The notes beneath the pieces were generated by a model. That model did not search any database. It worked only from the letters and a program-made list of their open reading frames with translations, and was not told the origin of the DNA. Below are positions 7,157 to 24,503 of a stretch of DNA of 35,010 nt, piece after piece (positions within the stretch are counted from its first letter, which is position 1; every line of letters begins with the position of its first letter). Source of the DNA: a virus (Duplodnaviria > Heunggongvirae > Uroviricota > Caudoviricetes). The DNA is taken from positions 1 through 35,010 of IMG/VR virus record IMGVR_UViG_3300045988_019110. One strand, 5' to 3'. The position numbers were made by a program, and so were the translations under genes.

Positions 7157-9031
7157 ATGTCAAGCGGATGCGGTGACGTTTTAAGCCTGGCGGATTTACA
7201 GACCGCCAAGAAACACCAGATTTTCGAAGCTGAAGTCATCACTGGTAAATCCGGTGGTGTTGCAGGTGGTGCGGATATTGATTATGCAACTAACCAGGTT
7301 ACCGGGCAGACGCAGAAGACCCTCCCAGCTGTTCTTCGCGATGCCGGGTTTTCTCCTGTGTCGTGGGATTTCTCAACAGGCGGCACACTGACTGCCGCCG
7401 ACCGTGGCAAAGTTGTCTATGACCCCGTAAGTAAAACGTGGTATTCGTACGCAGGTACGTTGCCTGTTGTGGTTCCTGCATCCTTTAACCCGGTTGGTAA
7501 CGCGGACTGGAAGCCTCAGACTGACCCAAAATTGCGTACTGATTTGGCTAACACATCGAATGAAGCCTTGGGTGACGCATTAATTGGAACAAAGCAGCCT
7601 TTCACAAACTCATCTTCTCGCACTCAGCACGATAAAAACCTTGATAGAGTTAGTATTCTTGATTTTTTAGGGGCAAAAGGTGATGGAGTTACTGACTGCA
7701 CGGCAGCAATACAGGCCGCAGCCAATTATTCAAAAGCCTCCGGTAAGGCGATATATTTCCCGGCTGGAAACTATCTGATTAAAAACTCAATTAGCATTCC
7801 AGTTGGCGATCATTACAGTAAGAACGGTGTTGTTTTTATCGGTGATGGGAAAGGTTCTACGCGTATTACCAAGGATACTGTTGGAACCATCAACGCAACA
7901 TATAACGCTATCTTCTTGGTTGATGAGGGTTACAACTTCACGCTCAAAGGAATCTTGTTATATGACCAGACAGATGAATCTTTCGGCGTAGTTTTCACTA
8001 GCTGGTTTAGCGGATTCTATGCAGATGATTTCTATACTTTCGTAACCCATACCGGGATTTTGTGCGTTGGCGACTTTTTTATAAACAGCATTACGAATGG
8101 GATGCTTGATGGGGGACAAAATGGTTTCTATATGGCTAAATCAGGCACCACAAACCAATTTGACGGTCTATTTGCCGCAGGGCAATCCGGATACGGCTTC
8201 CAGTTAACTGGTGGATACTCCCGGGTCGGTGCGCTTGCGTGTGACAGCTGTAAAGGCACTCCGTACCATTTCAAAGGATTCATCGGCTCTGTCGGCAGCC
8301 TCGGCGCAGAAAATCCAGATGATTATCGTCAGGATGGTATCGTTAAATTGTCTGTGGCATCCCAGGTAGTAATCGACAAAGTATATACCGTTGCCATTCA
8401 CCTGAAAGACACCGCTTCATTTATATCTCTTGCTGGTGACTGTACTCTTACGCTTAACGAGCTGATTATTTCTGGCGGGCAGTCTACCGGGTACTTATAC
8501 GACGTTATCGCCAACTCGTACTTGACGCTGGGCGTAAAGATGCCGGATGGCTTTACTTTGAAGGGTAACAGGTCAGAGGGCGTTGTTTTTACCGGGCGAT
8601 TTGGGGACGATGTTCGACATTTCAAAAACAGTAACATGGACGTATCATGGCTTGGCCGTTATGACCTTTATGGTAAATCATACTCAGCTGCATTTCCTAA
8701 GGCTATCCACTTAAATAGTTATGGTCAGCCACGCAGGGCCGGTGCTGACGGTTCTGTTAACAATGACTATGCAGTTAGACCTAATCGTGGTGACATATTT
8801 CTGGAGAATAACCCAGCAGTTAATCCGTCTGCTGGTTACATAATTCTTAACCCTGGCTCAGGGTCTTTGATGGATGCAACATATGCGAGCATTCCTATCC
8901 GTATAGGTGGAACGACAGCACAGAGACCAGTAAAACCGCCACAGACCACAATGTATTTCGATATGACACTTGGGAAGCCAGTCTGGTATTACGGAACTGG
9001 CTGGGTTGATGCTACTGGAGCTACGGTATAA
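7157..9031 (+). CDS. tailspike protein with pectate-lyase-like right-handed beta-helix (polysaccharide depolymerase candidate)
   Basis: 624 aa; N-terminal virion-anchor-like region; FLGAKGDGVTDCTAAIQAAANYS motif typical of pectate-lyase-superfamily depolymerases; RBS aagagga upstream. Confidence 0.7.
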   Translation: MSSGCGDVLSLADLQTAKKHQIFEAEVITGKSGGVAGGADIDYATNQVTGQTQKTLPAVLRDAGFSPVSWDFSTGGTLTAADRGKVVYDPVSKTWYSYAGTLPVVVPASFNPVGNADWKPQTDPKLRTDLANTSNEALGDALIGTKQPFTNSSSRTQHDKNLDRVSILDFLGAKGDGVTDCTAAIQAAANYSKASGKAIYFPAGNYLIKNSISIPVGDHYSKNGVVFIGDGKGSTRITKDTVGTINATYNAIFLVDEGYNFTLKGILLYDQTDESFGVVFTSWFSGFYADDFYTFVTHTGILCVGDFFINSITNGMLDGGQNGFYMAKSGTTNQFDGLFAAGQSGYGFQLTGGYSRVGALACDSCKGTPYHFKGFIGSVGSLGAENPDDYRQDGIVKLSVASQVVIDKVYTVAIHLKDTASFISLAGDCTLTLNELIISGGQSTGYLYDVIANSYLTLGVKMPDGFTLKGNRSEGVVFTGRFGDDVRHFKNSNMDVSWLGRYDLYGKSYSAAFPKAIHLNSYGQPRRAGADGSVNNDYAVRPNRGDIFLENNPAVNPSAGYIILNPGSGSLMDATYASIPIRIGGTTAQRPVKPPQTTMYFDMTLGKPVWYYGTGWVDATGATV

Positions 9032-9058: not shown

Positions 9059-9196
9059 CTACTCTTCTGATAACTTCTCCAGTACAAACGCCAGTTGCGC
9101 ATTAGCGGCGTCTCTTTGCTGCCGTAGTCGTAGAACCTCCTCTTCGAGTTCCTTGATACGTTTTTGCAATGCCGGAATCGGGGCTGTGATGTTCAT
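9059..9196 (-). CDS. small coiled-coil protein (45 aa), last gene of leftward operon
   Basis: ATG overlaps the SNF2 helicase stop (ATGA coupling); heptad-like MNITAPIPALQKRIKELEEEVLRLRQQRD; not in ORF track (<60 aa). Confidence 0.3.
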   Translation of the reverse strand: MNITAPIPALQKRIKELEEEVLRLRQQRDAANAQLAFVLEKLSEE

Positions 9197-10617
9197 TTCT
9201 TACTCCTACGTTTCATATACTCAAGGAGGATATCCTGCACCTGTTTTTTCTCGTCGGTGCGTGAAGTGACAACAGAATCTAACGTATCTTTAGCAATAAT
9301 CTTGTAGATAAAAACGGGGCGATTGTGCCCAGATTGCTTTTGTCGTGTTGGACCTATGCGCTCTATAACCTGCAAATAGTGCTCAAGGTTCCATCCCTGA
9401 CTGAAAAAAGCCATATGATGGCCGCCGTCTTGTAGCGATATACCATGCCCGGCTGACGCAGGATGCACGCATAATATTTCGATTTCACCGCGGTTCCACG
9501 CTTCCATCTGCTTATTACCCTTCGCACCTTTGGCAAACGCCTGGGCCTGCGGGAATCGCTTAAGGATGCGCTCCAGTTCGTGCTTAAACTGATAGGCCAC
9601 CAGTAACGGCGCTCCCTGTAACTCCTCGACAATGGACTCCAGAGCATCCAGTTTCGTGTCGTGTACTTTCTCCCAGTCTTTCGTTGCTTCTCCGTCTGGC
9701 CCTGACACATACACGGCACCAGATGCAATCTGCAAACACTTCGACGTCTTCGCTGCCGCGTTAGCCGCTTCAACTTCCCCGCTTTCCAGTTCTGCGAATA
9801 ATTTCTCCTCCATATCGATGTACGCCTGACGTGCTTTCTTAGGCAGGTCGATTTCAACCGGCACGATAATAGGCGCCTCGCAACCGAACCACTCGGCGGC
9901 GTCAATCGTGAGACTAACGTCCTTCATCTTCTGGTGGATTTCAGTATCCGCACCCGGGCGCGCATGATATTCACGCGCCATCGCCGACTTACCTTTCTGT
10001 ACCGAGTTAAACCAGCGGTCTGTGAATGCCGTGTACGATGAACCGAGGCGCTCGCCCGCGTCGATAAACCAGTTCTGACCCCACAGGTCTTTGAGGCCGT
10101 TGGGTGATGGTGTGCCTGTCAGGTTAATGAACCGCTTAACTTTACCAAATGCCACTTTGCTAAGCGCCTTTGCCCGCTTGCTTCCACCAGAACGGCTGCG
10201 GAATGACTTAAGCTTCGTGCTTTCATCGGCAACGATAACGGTAAAAGGCCAGTCATCTTTGCCGTAGTAGTCAATCAGCCATTCAATAACTTCGTAGTTT
10301 GTGCACACCACGTTAGCGTCAGACTCCAGCGCCGCGATGCGGCGCTTCTCTGAACCGGTCGCATCAACGACACGAAGACAAGGAAATTGCCATTTCTCTT
10401 GTTCTGCTGGCCATGTGCCAGACGCAACACGCAACGGGGCGAGAATTAACACGCGGTCGTCATCATTAAGTTGGCCGTTGCGGAACAGTCTGTTTAGAAC
10501 CCACATTGTCGCGGAACTTTTGCCCGCGCCCATCGAAGCCCAAATATTACAGCGCGGATGTCGCAGCATGAACGAAGTCATGAGCTTCTGGTACTCGCGC
10601 CTTTGAAACTTAGACAT
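9193..10617 (-). CDS. SNF2/DEAD-like superfamily 2 helicase
   Basis: Walker A-like ASMGAGKSS and DExx-box VIVADESTK; start re-set to ATG at 10617 (GAGG Shine-Dalgarno), since track N-terminal extension overlaps the upstream gene. Confidence 0.7.
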   Translation of the reverse strand: MSKFQRREYQKLMTSFMLRHPRCNIWASMGAGKSSATMWVLNRLFRNGQLNDDDRVLILAPLRVASGTWPAEQEKWQFPCLRVVDATGSEKRRIAALESDANVVCTNYEVIEWLIDYYGKDDWPFTVIVADESTKLKSFRSRSGGSKRAKALSKVAFGKVKRFINLTGTPSPNGLKDLWGQNWFIDAGERLGSSYTAFTDRWFNSVQKGKSAMAREYHARPGADTEIHQKMKDVSLTIDAAEWFGCEAPIIVPVEIDLPKKARQAYIDMEEKLFAELESGEVEAANAAAKTSKCLQIASGAVYVSGPDGEATKDWEKVHDTKLDALESIVEELQGAPLLVAYQFKHELERILKRFPQAQAFAKGAKGNKQMEAWNRGEIEILCVHPASAGHGISLQDGGHHMAFFSQGWNLEHYLQVIERIGPTRQKQSGHNRPVFIYKIIAKDTLDSVVTSRTDEKKQVQDILLEYMKRRSKK

Positions 10618-11293
10618 GATTGGCCTCGTAAACTGCTTTTGCGAAACCTCGTGGGGTGAGGCTGCGGATTGTCTTTGTTCTGGCGCTCTTTCCGCCGAGT
10701 TTAGCCCAACCAGGGTTATCCCCGCTATCAGCGGCAACTACAGCAACGTCGGGCATAACAAACCCATTGCCTACCCATAGGCACGTCTTTTTAACATAGG
10801 CATCCCGCGCTGGGATAACATCCGGAAACATTGGATGCGTGTCGTCTTCCGGTAGATAGCCGCCGTATTCGTGCGGGTTGAACACATAATCAGGCTTACG
10901 CCATAAAGATGAAAGAACACTAACCGGGTTCTCAATCATATAGGGTACGTTATACTTTTTAGCCAGACGTGCCGCCACTTTGCATGTAATCACGGCCTCT
11001 ACCTGAAACGTCGGGTTATTCTTGCGCTTAGCTTCGAAATGGCGCGACCCACTAACGGCTAAATCCGTGCATGGGGGGAACGAAAAAATAATATCTGGCG
11101 CAACCTCGAAGTCGAATTTATTATCAATCCACGCGTTTATATAGTGGATGTTCTCGTGTTCAACCCTCGCGCCCAATCGTGCGTAGTCTCCGTGGTCCGC
11201 GCCATCATAGTTGAAACAATAGCAAGTATGGCCTGCTTCTGCCCACGGCCGGGCCATAAGGCCCGAACCGTCAAACAATGACCAGACAATCAT
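10610..11293 (-). CDS. compact DNA cytosine-C5 methyltransferase-like protein
   Basis: 227 aa with motif I-like LFDGSGL, motif IV-like FPPCT (catalytic Pro-Cys), motif VI-like IENPV and GNGFV near C-terminus; ATG overlaps upstream stop. Confidence 0.5.
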   Translation of the reverse strand: MIVWSLFDGSGLMARPWAEAGHTCYCFNYDGADHGDYARLGARVEHENIHYINAWIDNKFDFEVAPDIIFSFPPCTDLAVSGSRHFEAKRKNNPTFQVEAVITCKVAARLAKKYNVPYMIENPVSVLSSLWRKPDYVFNPHEYGGYLPEDDTHPMFPDVIPARDAYVKKTCLWVGNGFVMPDVAVVAADSGDNPGWAKLGGKSARTKTIRSLTPRGFAKAVYEANHV

Positions 11294-11481
11294 TTAGCCA
11301 CCAGAACTAACTCTTTACGCCCGAACGCCGTAACGTTACCGGTTACATCTTCGATAACCAGTTTACCGTTCGACTCGACGTACACCGTATCAACGGCAAC
11401 AGGACGACGGGTCTTAACGTTGAAAATCATGTCGCCAGGTACGATGTCACGTGCTGGTTTACGGTCATATTCGTATTTCAT
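11290..11481 (-). CDS. hypothetical protein
   Basis: 63-aa ORF with AGGA RBS; translationally coupled to downstream gene. Confidence 0.4.
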   Translation of the reverse strand: MKYEYDRKPARDIVPGDMIFNVKTRRPVAVDTVYVESNGKLVIEDVTGNVTAFGRKELVLVAK

Positions 11482-12297: not shown

Positions 12298-15200
12298 TTA
12301 CTTGGCATAACGTTTTAACTCCTGACCTTCTGCTACAAGAGGAAACCCCTCGGCCCATTCCGGTAATTCACACATCAACCGCTCGAGTTCAGCGACATTG
12401 TATTCCGGCGCATCTGGAGTTTCGCACACCAGTTCATCGTGTACCGAGAGTACGATAGGATACCCACCACGCTCAACGTTAATCATCGCATAGGCAAGTA
12501 AATCACGGCACAGCGCCTGAACAATGTTTTCGCAGGCCTTGCCGCCGTGTGTGTACAGGGTAGTCCATTGGCGGGTTAACTGGTTTTCGCCTTGATACTT
12601 GATTCGCACATTCGTGTTTACCCGTCCGTCTTCATCTGTTTCCTTTGTCACACTAACCCCGATTCCCGGATAGGAAAGGATACGACCTGACGGCAACTCC
12701 ATACACAACCACCAACCCGGAACCTTCCTGCCGGATGAATCAAATTCTACAGTGCGCCATATGCGGATAGCCCTTTCCCCGTTCCTGCGCAAGTGCGCTC
12801 CCGCCCAAAATTCACGACCAGGGTTACGAACAGCGGCTAAAATTCCGTCTTTAAGGTCGCGCCAGAAAGCTACTGTTTCCGGGTGTGACTCGCGCCACAT
12901 ACGCTTGATCGCGTCGCATGTGCGCCACACTTTCTTGTCCAGAATATACGACGGTCGGTCGTCCTTTTCGCCCGGATGCGGCGGTCGCTTTGCTTCCTGG
13001 ATACGCGCCCACTCATAACCGCGTGCGGTAGCTGCCCATATGTGGTCAGGGAATGTACCGTCCATTGTTTTAGCCATCTCAATAAGGTCGAGGCCTAAGT
13101 TTTTGGCGAACGTAACGAACGCTCCGACACCCCCCTCATAGCCTAGGCCAAGCTCGCAGTTATGCGCCACAAGAAAGCCAGAGTCTGAGGCTATAAGAAA
13201 ACGGTTGCCGTCTTCCACATCAATCAGGTCGTACACCGGCTCGCAGTAGGTTAATTTCCCGCTCAAGTTCAGCAATGCGGGCAACGGCTGCATCGTACTT
13301 TCGTTGAAGCTCGGGTATTTGCCGTCTGTTTCGGCAGTTTTCAGAACGGCTGACAAACCGAATGTTTCCAGGTTCGTAGTTACCGTCTGTGTCGATTCTA
13401 TCCATTTCGAGGTTCGGGTCATCCCAGCCTTCCAGAGTTTGAACATATCTAAGAAAAGACCTTTTATCAGTCCTCCACTGGTCGAATACCGTGATGCCTC
13501 TTGCCCCGTAGTTTTTATAACCCTTATCCCTGGGGCTTGTTGTTCGCGTGATCGCCGCTGACAGCCGGTTGAGTAATCGCGTTCTGTGCGCATCATCCGG
13601 CATTGCGTCTTCGTAGCAGAAATACTGTTTACGATATTTTTTTGTTGCTTCAAGGGCGCAGCGGTTGCATTGAGTGGTTTTACCAGCTCTGACGTTGTCA
13701 TAATAGACCCGCCCCGGCATCTCTCCGCAATCACATTGGACGAGTAGTTGTCTTTGGCCTTGTCGTTTTGGTAACTCGCGCAGGATAACCAAGCGTCCAT
13801 ACCTCTCTCCAGGGCGAGGCCCATCATATATCTGTTTGAAGCGAGTTGCTTTGCCTGCTTCCAGGAATGCGCCAAGATTTTGTGGTCTTCGGTCATTAGC
13901 ACCCCGTCCACATTTATTACCGGTTTCCACCCCATAAGGTGCGCGCCTTTTGTATTCACCCATTTTTCACCGCTCCATACTTTATCTGTTGATGTAACCG
14001 CCATAATATCCTTAAATCCGCCATTGGTCAAAACTTGGGTATGGCGGTGAAGGCAGGCCTTACCAATCTGGCGTAAATCTTTACGTTCCTTCTTAATGTC
14101 GTCTGGGTCCATTCCGAACATCTTGCCCGCGGTTACACAATAAATGTCCAGTCCGGCACGGAACGTATCGAGCGCGGTTTCTTCACCTGCCAGCCACGCA
14201 AGTCCGCGGCCTTCAACGTTAGAGTAATCGGCAACAACAAACTTATGTCCTGCTTCCGGTATGATGCAGCTGCGAACCGTCGATGCCGTTAGCTTGGCTA
14301 CGTCAAATCGGCGGTGAGCACGACCCTTAAGTAACGCTGAAATGCCTTTATCCAGTTCATCATCATGATAGTACCCGCGGGCCAAGTTCTGCGGCTGGAA
14401 GCCTTTACCTGCCCATCGCAGAGTACGTTTTGCCCCACCGTACTGCAGGCAACCGCGACGGCGGTCGTCCGACGAGCGGCCTAACAGCAATGGGTTGTAT
14501 TTCGTGGACGCTGTTGACGCGGCACCGAGGCGCATTTCGATAATCGTACGGGCATCGTCCGGTAAATCATCGTCCGCCAACAGGTCATTCAGCGTCGACT
14601 TCTGTGCGTTGTGGATGCGGTGTGCGGGGGCAAGTTCACGCAGAATAGGTAGAAAGTCTTTACCAGTAAGTGAGCCGCCGTATTTGCGTTGGGCTTCTTC
14701 CTGTAACTGCGCTTTGTGTTTCTCCACAGCTTCAATCGCGGCTTCCGCCAGTGCAACGTCAACCTTAAACCCACGGTCATTGATTAACTGGTCCAGCTCC
14801 AGTACACGGTCCTCGAACTCTGAGTTACCCCACCGCGGCAGTTTATGGAAGACTTCACGCATCGCAGTGATGTCGCTCACGGCGTACTTGATGAACAGTG
14901 CCCACTCGTCCGGGTGTGTTTCGGCGGTGTAACGGCGGATTTTGTAGTTCTTCGGCGTCGGTTTAGAAAAACGCTTAATCAGCGCCTTGCCGCGTTTATC
15001 TTTCGCGTTGTCCGCGGATACACCCAGCACTTCACATAGCGCATCAAGCGAACCTGGTAGCGCGTGACGAAACGCCCAAATCATCGTATCAATGGTGTTG
15101 CTTACAGGAATGTCAAAGCCCCAGCAGTGCTTCATGATGAGCCTGTCGAACATTGAGCCGTTGTGCCACACCATCTTGATGCGGCTGTTTGGCTTAACCA

Positions 15201-15396
15201 GGCGGCGCAAGGCGCGATGCAAATCCCCCGGCATGTCGCTGCCGTCGGTGCAGTCCCATACCTGCACAGGCTCGTCGTCAAAAGCATAGGTACAGATAAG
15301 CACTTCTGTAGTCGGATGCTCGGCGTAAGCGTAGGAGCCGACTTTCTTTAAATTGGCTTCGGAGAATGTTTCAAAGTCTAAGAACAGGTAACTCAT
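12298..15396 (-). CDS. DNA polymerase, family A, with 3'-5' exonuclease domain; intein-containing
   Basis: 1032-aa ORF; N-terminal exo motif LFLDFETFS; motif A VVADYSNVEGRGLAW; motif B split as RQIGKA / CELGLGYEGG by a ~299-aa insertion with intein hallmarks. Confidence 0.85.
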   Translation of the reverse strand: MSYLFLDFETFSEANLKKVGSYAYAEHPTTEVLICTYAFDDEPVQVWDCTDGSDMPGDLHRALRRLVKPNSRIKMVWHNGSMFDRLIMKHCWGFDIPVSNTIDTMIWAFRHALPGSLDALCEVLGVSADNAKDKRGKALIKRFSKPTPKNYKIRRYTAETHPDEWALFIKYAVSDITAMREVFHKLPRWGNSEFEDRVLELDQLINDRGFKVDVALAEAAIEAVEKHKAQLQEEAQRKYGGSLTGKDFLPILRELAPAHRIHNAQKSTLNDLLADDDLPDDARTIIEMRLGAASTASTKYNPLLLGRSSDDRRRGCLQYGGAKRTLRWAGKGFQPQNLARGYYHDDELDKGISALLKGRAHRRFDVAKLTASTVRSCIIPEAGHKFVVADYSNVEGRGLAWLAGEETALDTFRAGLDIYCVTAGKMFGMDPDDIKKERKDLRQIGKACLHRHTQVLTNGGFKDIMAVTSTDKVWSGEKWVNTKGAHLMGWKPVINVDGVLMTEDHKILAHSWKQAKQLASNRYMMGLALERGMDAWLSCASYQNDKAKDNYSSNVIAERCRGGSIMTTSELVKPLNATAAPLKQQKNIVNSISATKTQCRMMRTERDYSTGCQRRSREQQAPGIRVIKTTGQEASRYSTSGGLIKGLFLDMFKLWKAGMTRTSKWIESTQTVTTNLETFGLSAVLKTAETDGKYPSFNESTMQPLPALLNLSGKLTYCEPVYDLIDVEDGNRFLIASDSGFLVAHNCELGLGYEGGVGAFVTFAKNLGLDLIEMAKTMDGTFPDHIWAATARGYEWARIQEAKRPPHPGEKDDRPSYILDKKVWRTCDAIKRMWRESHPETVAFWRDLKDGILAAVRNPGREFWAGAHLRRNGERAIRIWRTVEFDSSGRKVPGWWLCMELPSGRILSYPGIGVSVTKETDEDGRVNTNVRIKYQGENQLTRQWTTLYTHGGKACENIVQALCRDLLAYAMINVERGGYPIVLSVHDELVCETPDAPEYNVAELERLMCELPEWAEGFPLVAEGQELKRYAK
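13159..14055 (-). other. intein inserted in PolA motif B
   Basis: Pol-frame residues 448-746: N-terminal CLHRHTQVLT (block A), LMTEDHKIL (block B), C-terminal VYDLIDVEDGNRFLIA...FLVAHN followed by +1 Cys (blocks F/G). Confidence 0.65.
13220..13963 (-). CDS. HNH endonuclease-like ORF nested inside the intein in an alternate reading frame
   Basis: 247-aa ORF, different frame from the polymerase; ATG with GGAG 9 nt upstream; motifs GRLVIL...CDCGEM...CNRC and YKNYGARGITVFDQW...DRIDTDGNYEPGNIRFVSRSEN. Confidence 0.5.
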   Translation of the reverse strand: MGEYKRRAPYGVETGNKCGRGANDRRPQNLGAFLEAGKATRFKQIYDGPRPGERYGRLVILRELPKRQGQRQLLVQCDCGEMPGRVYYDNVRAGKTTQCNRCALEATKKYRKQYFCYEDAMPDDAHRTRLLNRLSAAITRTTSPRDKGYKNYGARGITVFDQWRTDKRSFLRYVQTLEGWDDPNLEMDRIDTDGNYEPGNIRFVSRSENCRNRRQIPELQRKYDAAVARIAELEREINLLRAGVRPD

Positions 15397-22004: not shown

Positions 22005-22199
22005 GTGAGGGTTATGTTTAAGAAGGGTCAGTTGGTTAGGGATAAAGTTAGCGGTGATTTATTCACTGTAATAGAGTCGAAGTTAATGTGGTTCGGTTTT
22101 GTAGAGGTTAATAGCGTAGCTGGGTTTGGTAAAGGGTTACTCCGTAAATGTGATTTAGAACTCATCGGCAACAATTTTAAATTCAAAGGGGCGAAGTGA
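22005..22199 (+). CDS. hypothetical protein
   Basis: 64-aa ORF with gaggag RBS. Confidence 0.45.
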   Translation: MRVMFKKGQLVRDKVSGDLFTVIESKLMWFGFVEVNSVAGFGKGLLRKCDLELIGNNFKFKGAK

Positions 22200-22438
22200 T
22201 GCAAATAATAATTACAGATAACACAGTTACCTACGAAAAAGGTGGCGACAATACTCTGGAGAGCATAGGCGTAAATATAGGTGACGTTTTTGATGTGCTT
22301 GGTACTGTATCGGGCGGCTGGTGGATTAAGGTTGGACGCAACAAAGTTCCGGTAACTAAGGCCGAAGCGGAAATATACACAACGGCATCGAATCATGATG
22401 CTCGTGCGGACGACTCTGAGGGAGGTTGCCGTAAATGA
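22196..22438 (+). CDS. hypothetical protein
   Basis: 80-aa ORF, start overlaps upstream stop. Confidence 0.45.
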   Translation: MMQIIITDNTVTYEKGGDNTLESIGVNIGDVFDVLGTVSGGWWIKVGRNKVPVTKAEAEIYTTASNHDARADDSEGGCRK

Positions 22439-22626
22439 GAATTCGTATAACTGATATTGATTATGTGGACCCGCGCGATGGTGACAATTTGCCGCTTAGT
22501 TACTGTGGTGTTGCCCTCGGTGATGAGTTCGAGGTTATCCATGCAGGGACTGACATGTTCATTATTGAGTATGTAGCGGGGTATATGGTCGTGCACTCCT
22601 GTGAATGCGAAGTTCTGGAGGACTAA
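22435..22626 (+). CDS. hypothetical protein
   Basis: 63-aa ORF, start overlaps upstream stop. Confidence 0.45.
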   Translation: MRIRITDIDYVDPRDGDNLPLSYCGVALGDEFEVIHAGTDMFIIEYVAGYMVVHSCECEVLED

Positions 22627-22629
22627 GTT

Positions 22630-22824
22630 ATGAACCCATATAACCAATTTCGTTTGCGCCGTCTGATTGGTGGTCTGCGCGCAGCCGAGTTTGTTGTTAA
22701 ATGCTGGGGGAAAGCTGAGATATCCTATAGACAGCCGTGGCATTTGGCTCACGCTAAGGCGGTAGCGCAGTACCGTGAGTACAAGTTAAACAGTTTCCTA
22801 AAGCACCATGGGGTCGAGTTATGA
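22630..22824 (+). CDS. hypothetical protein
   Basis: 64-aa ORF in tightly packed operon. Confidence 0.4.
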   Translation: MNPYNQFRLRRLIGGLRAAEFVVKCWGKAEISYRQPWHLAHAKAVAQYREYKLNSFLKHHGVEL

Positions 22825-22964
22825 GAGAAGCATTCGAACGGTGGGCTGTCGTTGAGGGCCTACCTGTTAACAAGGGTTCGAAGAAAGAGTACCTGAACGT
22901 TAAGACGCGTCTCGCGTGGCGGGCGTGGAAAGCTGGTGTGTTGTTTATCGCGAATCAGAGGTGA
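22821..22964 (+). CDS. hypothetical small protein (47 aa)
   Basis: ATG overlaps upstream stop (ATGA); fills the gap to the next gene; not in ORF track (<60 aa). Confidence 0.3.
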   Translation: MREAFERWAVVEGLPVNKGSKKEYLNVKTRLAWRAWKAGVLFIANQR

Positions 22965-22967
22965 GAT

Positions 22968-23165
22968 ATGGGTGAGTGGATTAAGTGCAGTGAGCGGATG
23001 CCAGGTGATTTTGAAGATGTGCTGGTTTCAGACGGGGTTGACGTTGAGGTGATGTGGTGGGATTGCGACGGTTTCTGGGATTGTTGGGCGCCGCGTAACT
23101 CAAATATCAGTAGTGAGGATGTTACCCACTGGATGCCGTTACCAGAGCCGCCATCGCTGGCGTAA
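22968..23165 (+). CDS. DUF551-like protein
   Basis: 65 aa with Trp-rich core and C-terminal HWMPLPEPP motif characteristic of DUF551 phage proteins. Confidence 0.5.
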   Translation: MGEWIKCSERMPGDFEDVLVSDGVDVEVMWWDCDGFWDCWAPRNSNISSEDVTHWMPLPEPPSLA

Positions 23166-23210
23166 CAGGTGGTGTAACAGGTCAATAGTTTGGGATTTTA
23201 CTGAGTGACT

Positions 23211-23240
23211 TACGCTGCTACACAGCAGCGTATCATTTTT
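23211..23240 (+). terminator. rho-independent terminator
   Basis: ACGCTGCT-acac-AGCAGCGT hairpin followed by a T-rich tract (atcatttttctcattttt). Confidence 0.5.
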
Positions 23241-23325
23241 CTCATTTTTGTTCTATTTCACCAAACGCAACAATCGAAGCGACTATTGCAGGAGATGCAA
23301 CAATACAAACACCAATAAAATTTAC

Positions 23326-23354
23326 TTGCACACTTATATAGAATAGGATACTAT
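23326..23354 (+). promoter_or_regulatory. sigma70-type promoter (TTGCAC-17-TACTAT) with perfect GAATAG-N4-CTATTC palindrome
   Basis: TTGCAC 23326-23331; TACTAT 23349-23354; palindrome GAATAGgataCTATTC overlapping the -10. Confidence 0.45.
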
Positions 23355-23385
23355 TCAGTTACACAAACGAGAGGAGAGGCAGAAG

Positions 23386-23535
23386 ATGGTTACTTTGATG
23401 ATTATGGAATTTGAAAACAGCACCGCAACTTATCGCGAGATGACTATGGTGCAGGCGTACCACCTGGCCTCAAACGGCAACTTCTACAAGGCTCAAATCA
23501 TCAACGAGTTTGGGGTGATTGACTATGAATTTTAG
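23386..23535 (+). CDS. hypothetical small protein (49 aa)
   Basis: ATG with GAGGAGAGG RBS; not in ORF track (<60 aa). Confidence 0.35.
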   Translation: MVTLMIMEFENSTATYREMTMVQAYHLASNGNFYKAQIINEFGVIDYEF

Positions 23536-23797
23536 AAGCTACACCGTTACCGTTGATTTTGAGGGGCTGGAATTGCCCCTCCCAAATAACTATCGGTATA
23601 TAACCCGTGACCGTTTCGGATTTATCCAGGGGTGGAGGAACAAACCAACAGACACTGAGTTTGGGATGTCGGGCGGAGAAGAGATGCCGATCACTTTCGG
23701 GCATCAGAGTAGCAACGAAGAACTTAAAACGGTTATTCGTAAGTATCGCCGCCGCGGTAACACCGGCCTTATAGCGATAACAGGCGCTGTTGAATAA
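23519..23797 (+). CDS. hypothetical protein
   Basis: 92-aa ORF (track start TTG; ATG at 23525 is an alternative start). Confidence 0.4.
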   Translation: MTMNFRSYTVTVDFEGLELPLPNNYRYITRDRFGFIQGWRNKPTDTEFGMSGGEEMPITFGHQSSNEELKTVIRKYRRRGNTGLIAITGAVE

Positions 23798-23816
23798 ACG
23801 AGAGGAGAGACAGAAG

Positions 23817-24503
23817 ATGAGTAGCAAAAACGAAGTATTCGAGTACCTGATTGACCAGTTACGGCAGCAGGTAACTAAGAAAGATGTCATATCTTTCAAT
23901 GTGTCTGTGCGTATATCCGACCTTGATGATGTCAAGCAGGTAATTCACAACCTACAGCAGCATATCGCCGGTAAGGACGATGAAATACGAGCGCTGAAAG
24001 ACAGTTTACGGCAGCAGGTAAATAACAGTCCGTACAAGCAACAGTGCGAAGACCTGGCGCATGAGGTGCAGTCACTCAAGAATCAGTTACGTGATGCGTC
24101 GGCGCGGATTAAGGAACTAACCTGTGCGCTGGATTGCGCTGAAAACGAGGTTATGTGTCTTCGTTCAATCGTTGACCTGGACCCTAAAGGCGCGATTGGG
24201 TACATCCGGCGGGCAAATAGTGCAATGACTGACATCCTGCGCCGCCAATACCTTAGCAAAGCACTTGAGGAACTCGGATGTAAGGATGCGCCAGAACAAT
24301 CCGGTCGCAGAAAAGAAGATACTCAGGGATGCGGGCATGACTGGGTTCTGGATGAAAAAGGGGACTACTTCGTTTGTGCTAAATGCGGTGAGCAAGAAGC
24401 TGAATTAGTTGATTGCCGGCACACTAATACCGTAGGTTTGCGTAAAGGTTTCGCCCCAGGGTTTACTAAAAAGTGTCTGGATTGCGGGGCTAAACTTAAA
24501 TGA
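23817..24503 (+). CDS. coiled-coil protein with C-terminal Cys-rich zinc-ribbon-like motifs
   Basis: Start re-set to ATG at 23817 with GAGGAGAG RBS; heptad-rich middle; CGHDW...CAKCG...C...CLDCG at C-terminus. Confidence 0.5.
   Translation: MSSKNEVFEYLIDQLRQQVTKKDVISFNVSVRISDLDDVKQVIHNLQQHIAGKDDEIRALKDSLRQQVNNSPYKQQCEDLAHEVQSLKNQLRDASARIKELTCALDCAENEVMCLRSIVDLDPKGAIGYIRRANSAMTDILRRQYLSKALEELGCKDAPEQSGRRKEDTQGCGHDWVLDEKGDYFVCAKCGEQEAELVDCRHTNTVGLRKGFAPGFTKKCLDCGAKLK

Follow-up and report, generated by a model that had tools for sequence, protein, structure and literature searches.

The window, a stretch of 35,010 nucleotides of viral DNA, carries a dcm-like gene whose product is, in our judgement, quite probably an active, orphan AdoMet-dependent C5 methyltransferase belonging to a compact phage Dcm-like family (PHROG 757), and encoded within the early/replication operon of a Jersey/Kagunavirus-like siphophage. 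The open reading frame has 227 codons, begins with ATG and fills exactly the interval listed in Table 1. A tblastn search places homologues in 1,523 phage records. Because 4,875 homologues were recovered, and the product matches PHROG 757 ('DNA methyltransferase') across residues 1-226 (E 5e-86), we regard this frame as a real gene and reject a non-gene reading. As the preliminary description held, the gene adjoins that of a SNF2-type helicase (Pfam SNF2-rel_dom, E 4e-12, plus Helicase_C; PHROG 62, E 4e-165). The helicase gene is the downstream neighbour, its real ATG lies at 10617 within an 8-nt overlap with the dcm stop (ATGTCTAA), and it is translationally coupled to dcm. On the other side, the dcm ATG overlaps the stop of a small upstream frame (ATGA). 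The DNA that flanks the gene in the window most resembles Kagunavirus records (89% identity).

Table 1. Position of the dcm-like gene, its neighbours and the principal features of its product within the window
Feature	Residues	Position	Strand	Description	Basis
dcm-like gene		10610..11293	-	227-aa compact C5-cytosine DNA methyltransferase (probable); span includes stop codon	
SNF2-type DNA helicase gene		9193..10617	-		Pfam and PHROG matches, junction sequence
63-aa ORF upstream of dcm		11290..11481	-	PHROG 4879	Stop/ATG overlap
Motif I	6-12	11258..11278	-	AdoMet-binding loop LFDGSGL, after strand beta1	Alignment
Motif IV	72-76	11066..11080	-	FPPCT, catalytic nucleophile Cys75	Alignment and conservation
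Motif VI	120-124	10922..10936	-	IENPV, Glu121	Aligned with canonical ENV
Family-specific conserved loop	140-167	10793..10876	-	HEYGGYLPEDDTHPMFPDVIPARDAYV	Conservation, hhalign, model
Probable motif VIII-equivalent strand and GNGF turn	168-178	10760..10792	-	KKTCLWVGNGF	Conservation, model
Variable segment at TRD position	182-208	10670..10750	-		Low pLDDT, poor conservation, length comparison
C-terminal conserved block	209-225	10619..10669	-	IRSLTPRGFAKAVYEAN; motif IX-like RxLTPR, then terminal helix	Conservation, hhalign

The protein had been described as an unusually compact enzyme. Its shortness is borne out, at 227 aa against 287-374 aa in ten canonical phage C5 methyltransferases, 327 aa in M.HhaI and 291 aa in the catalytic domain of DNMT3B. 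That it is unusual is not, as the compact form ranks among the commonest phage methylase families, with 1,966 clusters at 50% identity and lengths nearly all between 200 and 260 aa, and the genomes of Jersey, TLS and BASEL phages already carry annotations for it. Small size is a trait of the whole family, in which a natural fusion of the compact methylase domain with a D12 Dam methylase (P0253) also occurs.

The predicted structure of the window protein (AF2; pLDDT 79.8, pTM 0.83) is a class I Rossmann methyltransferase fold closest to C5 methyltransferases, and DNMT3A/B are the closest folds. The four motif strings quoted in the preliminary description are all present in the protein, including GNGFV at residues 175-179. 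By HMMER and hhalign, motifs I, IV and VI fall on those of DNMT3B, HaeIII, Dcm and the ten canonical phage enzymes, and the hhalign comparison with the latter reaches E 1.3e-4. LFDGSGL of motif I aligns with LFDGIAT of DNMT3B, LFSGAGG of HaeIII and LFAGIGG of Dcm, and the Pro-Cys of FPPCT with the PC of the same three enzymes. The motif IV Cys is kept in 98 of 100 diverse representatives of the family, and in motif VI the Glu, Asn and Pro are kept in 99, 93 and 98 of them, respectively. Across 74 diverse members, C75, E121, P123, Y166 and W173 are invariant, and the window protein has all the family-invariant positions (C75, E121, P123, P140, Y166, W173, P181 and R210-S-x-T-P-x-G). Two positions are more variable. 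Conservation of the first Gly of motif I (G9) is restricted to the enterobacterial-phage subfamily and does not extend across the wider compact family; the acidic position of motif II is Asn28 in the window protein and Asp in 91% of the wider family, and the K42/KarlJaspers type, which is active, also has Asn there.

Against Pfam PF00145 the window protein reaches 15.5 bits, under the gathering score of 22, which homologues 63-67% identical to it pass (24.7-28.5 bits, the highest being P0071 at 28.5); E < 0.01 is reached by 4 of the 74 diverse members. No match was returned by NCBIfam or PADLOC, by Pfam scans of isolated C-terminal fragments, or by phmmer against the PDB with residues 160-227, and a phmmer search for related solved structures gave nothing relevant. 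Profile searches against solved C5 methyltransferases yielded weak matches over motifs I-IV (E 0.35-0.7). Alignment to E. coli Dcm by hhalign is limited to motifs I-VI and is not significant (E 0.27), and nothing in the C-terminal half of that enzyme aligned with the family. We do not assign the protein to the E. coli Dcm/EcoRII type, as homology across the target-recognition domain (TRD) was not found.

In the model the family-specific loop at residues 140-167 sits between a helix (140-146) and a strand (170-175); P140 and Y166 are invariant in the family alignment, with D164 conserved to 90% or more. Against the canonical profile, hhalign pairs the EYGG of this loop with the 'dfGvPQ' that precedes motif VIII, and some 20 inserted residues follow. 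We infer that the loop contacts DNA. The QxRxR of motif VIII is not recognisable; a conserved K168-K169-T170 stands at the expected place, at the start of strand 170-175, and hhalign of the family with the canonical profile or with DNMT3A gave no reliable alignment at the motif VIII region. These three residues probably occupy the motif VIII position, judging from the superposition on DNMT3A by which the corresponding K175 and K176 of phage K42 Dcm were designated substrate-binding (bioRxiv 10.1101/2023.08.16.553469). Among the 100 representatives, K168 and T170 are each kept in 95% and W173 in 98%. The likeness of KKTCLW-GN to RARYFWGN of DNMT3A is a lead and not a result, because the hhalign score of the family against DNMT3A 790-912 (15.6) lies within the range of the shuffled controls (mean 12.6, maximum 24.8).

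The motif X assignment of GNGFV, and with it the canonical motif order that had been proposed, is not supported. GNGF comes straight after the strand bearing K168, K169 and T170; its Asn (N176) is found in 43 of the 100 representatives, whereas the Asn of motif X is invariant in the canonical set, and the canonical motif X profile block has no match there. Nor did profile comparison with that block detect a GN(S/A)V motif X anywhere in the window protein. When aligned locally by hhalign, the canonical IX-X block instead finds its best match in IRSLTPRGFAK, as motif IX (RRLTPRECFR), a weak match of 11 columns (E 0.02). By sequence likeness it is the C-terminal RSLTPRG that resembles motif IX. 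This block is well conserved (R210 95%, S211 85%, P214 90%, G216 92%, A220 86%), and its terminal helix is present in the model at residues 215-225.

The sub-threshold Pfam score and the missing canonical motifs VIII and X, together with tight coupling to the helicase gene, might be taken to favour a catalytically dead or RNA-acting (DNMT2-like) protein that serves the replication module as a DNA- or RNA-binding factor. We consider this highly improbable, and the pseudo-enzyme reading was rejected. Experimental indications for an active C5 methyltransferase come from a homologue, the Dcm of phage K42, which is near-identical to KarlJaspers Dcm. K42 Dcm triggers the retron Ec86 (Eco1); escaper mutations map in dcm, Dcm toxicity is dependent on Ec86, and 5mC was detected by LC-MS in the msDNA and lost in a C82A/E128A/K175A/K176A mutant (bioRxiv 10.1101/2023.08.16.553469, published as Cell Rep 2024;43:114857). 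The four mutated residues, present at the same positions in KarlJaspers Dcm, align with C75, E121, K168 and K169 of the window protein, for which the same activity would be expected by analogy. Dcm genes were present in 34 of 35 Ec86-sensitive phages (bioRxiv 10.1101/2023.08.16.553469).

This product also bears on the suggestion that the enzyme had been repurposed for another base modification. Transfer of a non-methyl group, such as carboxymethyl from Cx-SAM, or the opening step of a hypermodification pathway, is in our view barely credible: the K42 homologue makes 5mC, and neither the window nor phage Jersey showed a Cx-SAM synthase, TET enzyme or glycosyltransferase. A carboxymethyltransferase of the 8yf3 type was rejected, as no partner that makes Cx-SAM was seen nearby.

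If the window protein is an active methyltransferase, catalysis would be expected to follow the canonical C5 route. The target cytosine would be flipped out and attacked at C6 by Cys75 of motif IV (PPC), while Glu121 of motif VI (ENP) would protonate N3, and AdoMet, bound by the motif I loop together with the Rossmann core, would supply the methyl group. The arginines of motif VIII may be replaced by K168, K169 and T170. As there is no separate TRD, reading of the DNA would fall to the catalytic loop, the 140-167 loop and the 28-residue variable loop (182-208), which precedes the helix bearing the motif IX-like RSLTPRG. The enzyme likely serves to methylate the phage's own DNA as it replicates, which may blunt cytosine-sensitive restriction; in the BASEL study, carriage of these methylase genes showed no simple relation to restriction resistance. 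As a side effect, the phage would probably be detectable by Ec86, which senses methylation of the stem-loop of its own msDNA.

The variable segment at the TRD position has low pLDDT at residues 190-198 and is poorly conserved at 183-197, and it contains a loop of the 'DNPGWAKLGG' type that is NPGW-type in both the window protein and KarlJaspers Dcm. In 191 family members, the median length of the stretch between the P181 and R210 equivalents is 28 residues, and canonical phage enzymes have about 95 more residues from motif VIII to the C-terminus, with a TRD of 80-120 aa. By analogy with K42 Dcm, CCWGG would be the target of the window enzyme; for K42 itself this motif was assumed from E. coli Dcm and not mapped, with msDNA mutagenesis as its sole support (bioRxiv 10.1101/2023.08.16.553469). 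The window contains 70 CCWGG sites against about 91 expected, a mild under-representation rather than avoidance, and motif counts of this kind cannot settle the specificity of the enzyme. A literature search for methylome or restriction data on the Dcm of Jersey-like or T1-like phages found no direct determination of specificity.

The same C5 chemistry could be exercised with short or relaxed specificity (2-4 bp, or near-nonspecific), as a 'blanket' anti-restriction methylase of the promiscuous kind raised in the preliminary description. The brevity of the segment at the TRD position, the assumed status of the K42 motif and the fact that DNMT3A/B, the closest folds, read only CpG are all consistent with such a scheme. 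A different or wider target is further hinted at by the Ec86 experiments in MG1655, a host with its own dcm, where the retron responded to the phage enzyme alone (bioRxiv 10.1101/2023.08.16.553469), although overexpression could also explain this. Against it, defence was lost when either C of the msDNA CCTGG was mutated, which fits CCWGG as the recognised site; cells tolerated the homologue well enough for it to be assayed; and the conserved extra loop at 140-167 could supply specific contacts. On balance we think blanket methylation rather unlikely. A broader proposal, which we put forward tentatively and would not expect to prevail, is that the compact family is a TRD-less minimal C5 methyltransferase that acts elsewhere than on the inner cytosine of CCWGG, perhaps on a shorter or relaxed motif, on the outer cytosine or on DNA in unusual forms, for instance hairpins. 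Were it true, a target of this kind would explain the triggering of Ec86 in a dcm+ host by the phage enzyme and not by host Dcm, and the compact family would constitute the smallest known sequence-reading C5 methyltransferase scaffold.

The finding of a C5 methyltransferase gene in this phage is an ordinary one with little that is new: the gene has an orthologue that was annotated as a phage methylase long ago, and it comes from a very common, annotated family with a member known from experiment to make 5mC and to trigger Ec86. Its practical relevance may lie in host range and in the choice of strains for phage therapy, as the DNA of the window phage, by analogy with K42, probably contains 5mC, and Ec86/Eco1 probably senses the phage. 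More broadly, a natural minimal C5 methyltransferase of about 225 aa is a reasonable subject for methylome and structural study, and for enzyme engineering.

Among known systems, the canonical C5 methyltransferases (M.HhaI, M.HaeIII and E. coli Dcm; PF00145) have in common with the window protein the Rossmann core, motifs I, IV (PC) and VI (ENx) in the same order, and, by a weak match, a motif IX-like RxLTPR. The window protein has 60-150 fewer residues, lacks the TRD and small domain, probably has KKT in place of QxRxR, and is without a recognisable GN(S/A)V motif X. The catalytic domains of DNMT3A and DNMT3B, despite their likeness in fold, are only 12-16% identical to it, are about 285 aa long and have recognisable motifs VIII (RxR), IX and X; no significant profile match to DNMT3A 790-912 was found, and the window protein does not belong to the DNMT3 family. 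KarlJaspers (Bas06) Dcm (bas06_0055; 711 bp, 236 aa) is much closer, being 62% identical over the full length (E 1e-108), and has both the 'DNPGWAK' type of variable loop and the C-terminal IRSLTPRGFA block. About 38% of residues nevertheless differ, KarlJaspers belongs to the Drexlerviridae whereas the window phage belongs to the Guernseyvirinae, and two small ORFs lie between its dcm and helicase genes, unlike in the window. Closest of all is the orthologue gp37 of Salmonella phage Jersey (KF148055), which lacks the polymerase insert carried by the window. Jersey gp37 and the window protein share 96.5% identity; the Jersey gene is likewise 684 bp long and occupies the same position, with the same layout and 8-nt overlap onto the helicase gene, and its GenBank label, 'C-5 cytosine-specific DNA methylase', is accompanied by an annotation note that likens it to the Dcm of phage TLS.

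The best-supported reading of these analyses is that the 227-aa product of the dcm-like gene is a predicted orphan AdoMet-dependent DNA C5-cytosine methyltransferase, and the gene belongs to a phage methylase family that is among the commonest and includes a characterized relative. The core of the preliminary description, a compact, C5 methylase-like protein adjoining a SNF2 helicase, was right and the feature is real: the four motif strings it quoted are all found in the translated minus-strand ORF, whereas plus-strand translation of the same interval gave many stops. The gene is housed in a minus-strand replication operon, with genes for a VRR-NUC nuclease and a family A DNA polymerase upstream. 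Its start codon shares the sequence ATGA with the stop codon of a 63-aa ORF, and its last codons overlap by 8 nt the ATG of the following gene (junction sequence ATGTCTAA), which encodes a SNF2-type helicase (Pfam SNF2-rel_dom, E 4e-12, and Helicase_C; PHROG 62, E 4e-165). The true helicase start is the ATG at 10617, the TTG start called at 10737 by the ORF finder being an artefact.

Positions of the features discussed (nucleotides of the window, or residues of the 227-aa protein; secondary structure from the AF2 model)
Feature	Position	Strand	Remark
dcm-like ORF	10610..11293	-	ATG start, 227 codons (ORF listing and translation)
Family A DNA polymerase gene	12298-15396	-	1,032 aa
Polymerase insert	13159-14055	-	299 aa, in frame
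Nested ORF	13220-13963	-	247 aa
Tailspike gene	7157-9031	+	624 aa
Three consecutive ORFs	22028-23935	-	122, 119 and 144 aa
LFDGSGL	residues 6-12
FPPCT	residues 72-76
IENPV	residues 120-124
GNGFV	residues 175-179
beta1	residues 2-6		motif I
beta2	residues 23-28
beta3	residues 49-53
beta4	residues 68-71		then PPC
Helices	residues 83-114
beta5	residues 118-122		ENP
Helix	residues 124-130
Short strand	residues 136-138
Helix	residues 140-146		then conserved loop up to residue 167
Strand	residues 170-175		TCLWVG, then poorly predicted variable segment
Helices	residues 194-199, 204-211, 215-225

The DNA of this region is 85-89% identical to that of Kagunavirus and Jerseyvirus siphophages (Guernseyvirinae; 457 records), and Salmonella phage Jersey is collinear with the window. 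Jersey gp37, annotated 'C-5 cytosine-specific DNA methylase, similar to Dcm of phage TLS', is 96.5% identical to the window protein and has the same length, position and 8-nt helicase overlap; the dcm-like gene is the orthologue of an already annotated gene. The polymerase is larger than that of Jersey (726 aa) by a clean in-frame insert between '...RQIGKA' and 'CELGLGY...', with intein-type boundaries (Cys first, His-Asn last, then Cys). Wholly within the insert, on the same strand and in another reading frame, the nested ORF matches HNH endonuclease PHROG 374 (E 7e-47), and the polymerase-frame translation across it is open and looks low-complexity. No Hint or intein domain was found by Pfam at E <= 1. 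The insert may be a mini-intein with an out-of-frame homing endonuclease gene, with some 744 nt of dual coding. The tailspike, which has a pectate-lyase-like domain, resembles that of Jersey only over its N-terminal ~197 aa (48% identity), the remainder being without counterpart, and looks like a receptor-binding module swap. The three consecutive ORFs, with neither Jersey counterpart nor PHROG match, may be accessory or anti-defence cargo.

The sequence by itself gives thin evidence for C5 methyltransferase identity. With Pfam PF00145 the window protein reaches 15.5 bits (gathering score 22), covering motifs I-IV only, and NCBIfam gave no match. PF00145 reaches E < 0.01 in only 4 of 74 diverse family members, and its cut-off is passed by homologues 63-67% identical (24.7-28.5 bits). 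The hits of PDB profile searches, to DNMT3B and M.HaeIII, reached only E 0.35-0.7, aligned from motif I to the Pro-Cys. Against a profile built from ten canonical phage C5 methyltransferases and E. coli Dcm, the family aligns at E 1.3e-4 (hhalign) through motifs I, IV and VI, continuing to 'EYGG', paired with canonical 'dfGvPQ'. Cys75, Glu121, Pro123, Tyr166 and Trp173 show no variation, or almost none, across 74-100 divergent members.

The protein was initially thought unusually compact. PHROG 757 ('DNA methyltransferase') matches its whole length (E 5e-86), and tblastn found homologues in 1,523 phage records, including T1-like Drexlerviridae, rV5-like myoviruses, N15/phiKO2-like phages, Klebsiella weberviruses, and Campylobacter and Vibrio phages. 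Among 5.8 billion proteins searched there were 4,875 homologues, and a profile search of cluster representatives recovered 1,966 clusters (50% identity) at E <= 1e-3, 876 of them at 1e-10. As nearly all representatives are 200-260 aa long, compactness is not peculiar to this gene but is conserved throughout a very large family of phage proteins. Two natural fusions occur, joining the compact domain to a D12-class N6-adenine (Dam) methylase (P0253, 563 aa) or to an HNH endonuclease domain (P0261, 348 aa).

In the AF2 model the strand order is as expected for the catalytic domain, and the assignment of motifs I, IV and VI is secure. GNGFV had been taken for motif X, in canonical order, which these results do not support; GNGF probably sits at the motif VIII place instead, directly after strand 170-175, at whose start lie the conserved K168, K169 and T170. 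Its Asn is kept in 43 of 100 family representatives, whereas every enzyme of the canonical set has the Gly-Asn of motif X, and the canonical motif X block gave no match at GNGFV. KKT is probably motif VIII; the lysines equivalent to K168/K169 in the experimentally studied K42 homologue were called substrate-binding via DNMT3A superposition (bioRxiv 10.1101/2023.08.16.553469). A resemblance of KKTCLW-GN to DNMT3A RARYFWGN (DNMT3A sequence checked against PDB) is a lead only, its hhalign score being no higher than that of shuffled controls. A motif IX-like element ends the protein, the best match of the canonical IX-X block being IRSLTPRGFAK against motif IX RRLTPRECFR (E 0.02), and no canonical motif X could be detected. 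Where canonical enzymes have a whole target-recognition domain (TRD), the family has only ~28 residues, counted from the P181 to the R210 equivalent (median, 191 members), so that the early remark on little room for a TRD was correct.

Functional evidence comes from phage K42, which shares 95.4% genome identity with KarlJaspers/Bas06 (Drexlerviridae) (bioRxiv 10.1101/2023.08.16.553469) and whose 711-bp dcm triggers retron Ec86 (bioRxiv 10.1101/2023.08.16.553469; Cell Rep 2024;43:114857). All four Ec86 escaper phages carried lesions inside or just upstream of dcm, expression of the gene was toxic only with Ec86 present, and 34 of 35 Ec86-sensitive phages encode a Dcm of this type (bioRxiv 10.1101/2023.08.16.553469). 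LC-MS detected 5-methylcytosine in msDNA, and the modified base was gone in a C82A/E128A/K175A/K176A mutant (bioRxiv 10.1101/2023.08.16.553469). The suggestion of an enzyme repurposed for another base modification found no support: the homologue makes 5-methylcytosine, and no Cx-SAM synthase, TET, glycosyltransferase or dCMP-modifying enzyme was present in the Jersey annotation or the window ORFs checked. A C5 methyltransferase of this kind would be expressed alongside the replication genes and methylate phage DNA, and Ec86 msDNA would be methylated incidentally.

Specificity is the weak point of this best-supported reading. CCWGG was taken as the target on the model of E. coli Dcm, the sole support being that mutation of msDNA CCTGG ended defence (bioRxiv 10.1101/2023.08.16.553469). 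Since the assay host MG1655 carries its own dcm and only the phage enzyme triggers Ec86, we infer that the target or substrate range of the phage enzyme may differ from that of host Dcm. CCWGG is mildly under-represented in the window (70 sites against ~91 expected), so sites are available for protection; the BASEL study found no simple relation between such methylase genes and restriction resistance. GATC is extremely avoided (5 sites in 35 kb against ~127 expected, maximal-order Markov model, z about -20), at 7808, 12907 (in the polymerase gene, ~250 nt beyond the insert), 13550 (inside the insert), 23689 and 28508. CATG, CTAG and several 6-bp palindromes (GGCGCC, AAGCTT, GGTACC, GGGCCC) are also depleted, and the window revealed no Dam-type methylase.

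KarlJaspers bas06_0055 (MZ501090), which carries the annotation 'Dcm-like C5 cytosine methyltransferase', is exactly 711 bp long. Its product and the window protein share 62% identity along the full length (E 1e-108). Its C82, E128, K175 and K176 pair with window C75, E121, K168 and K169, and both proteins have a 'DNPGWAK'-type variable loop; the window protein thus belongs to a family with a functionally tested member.
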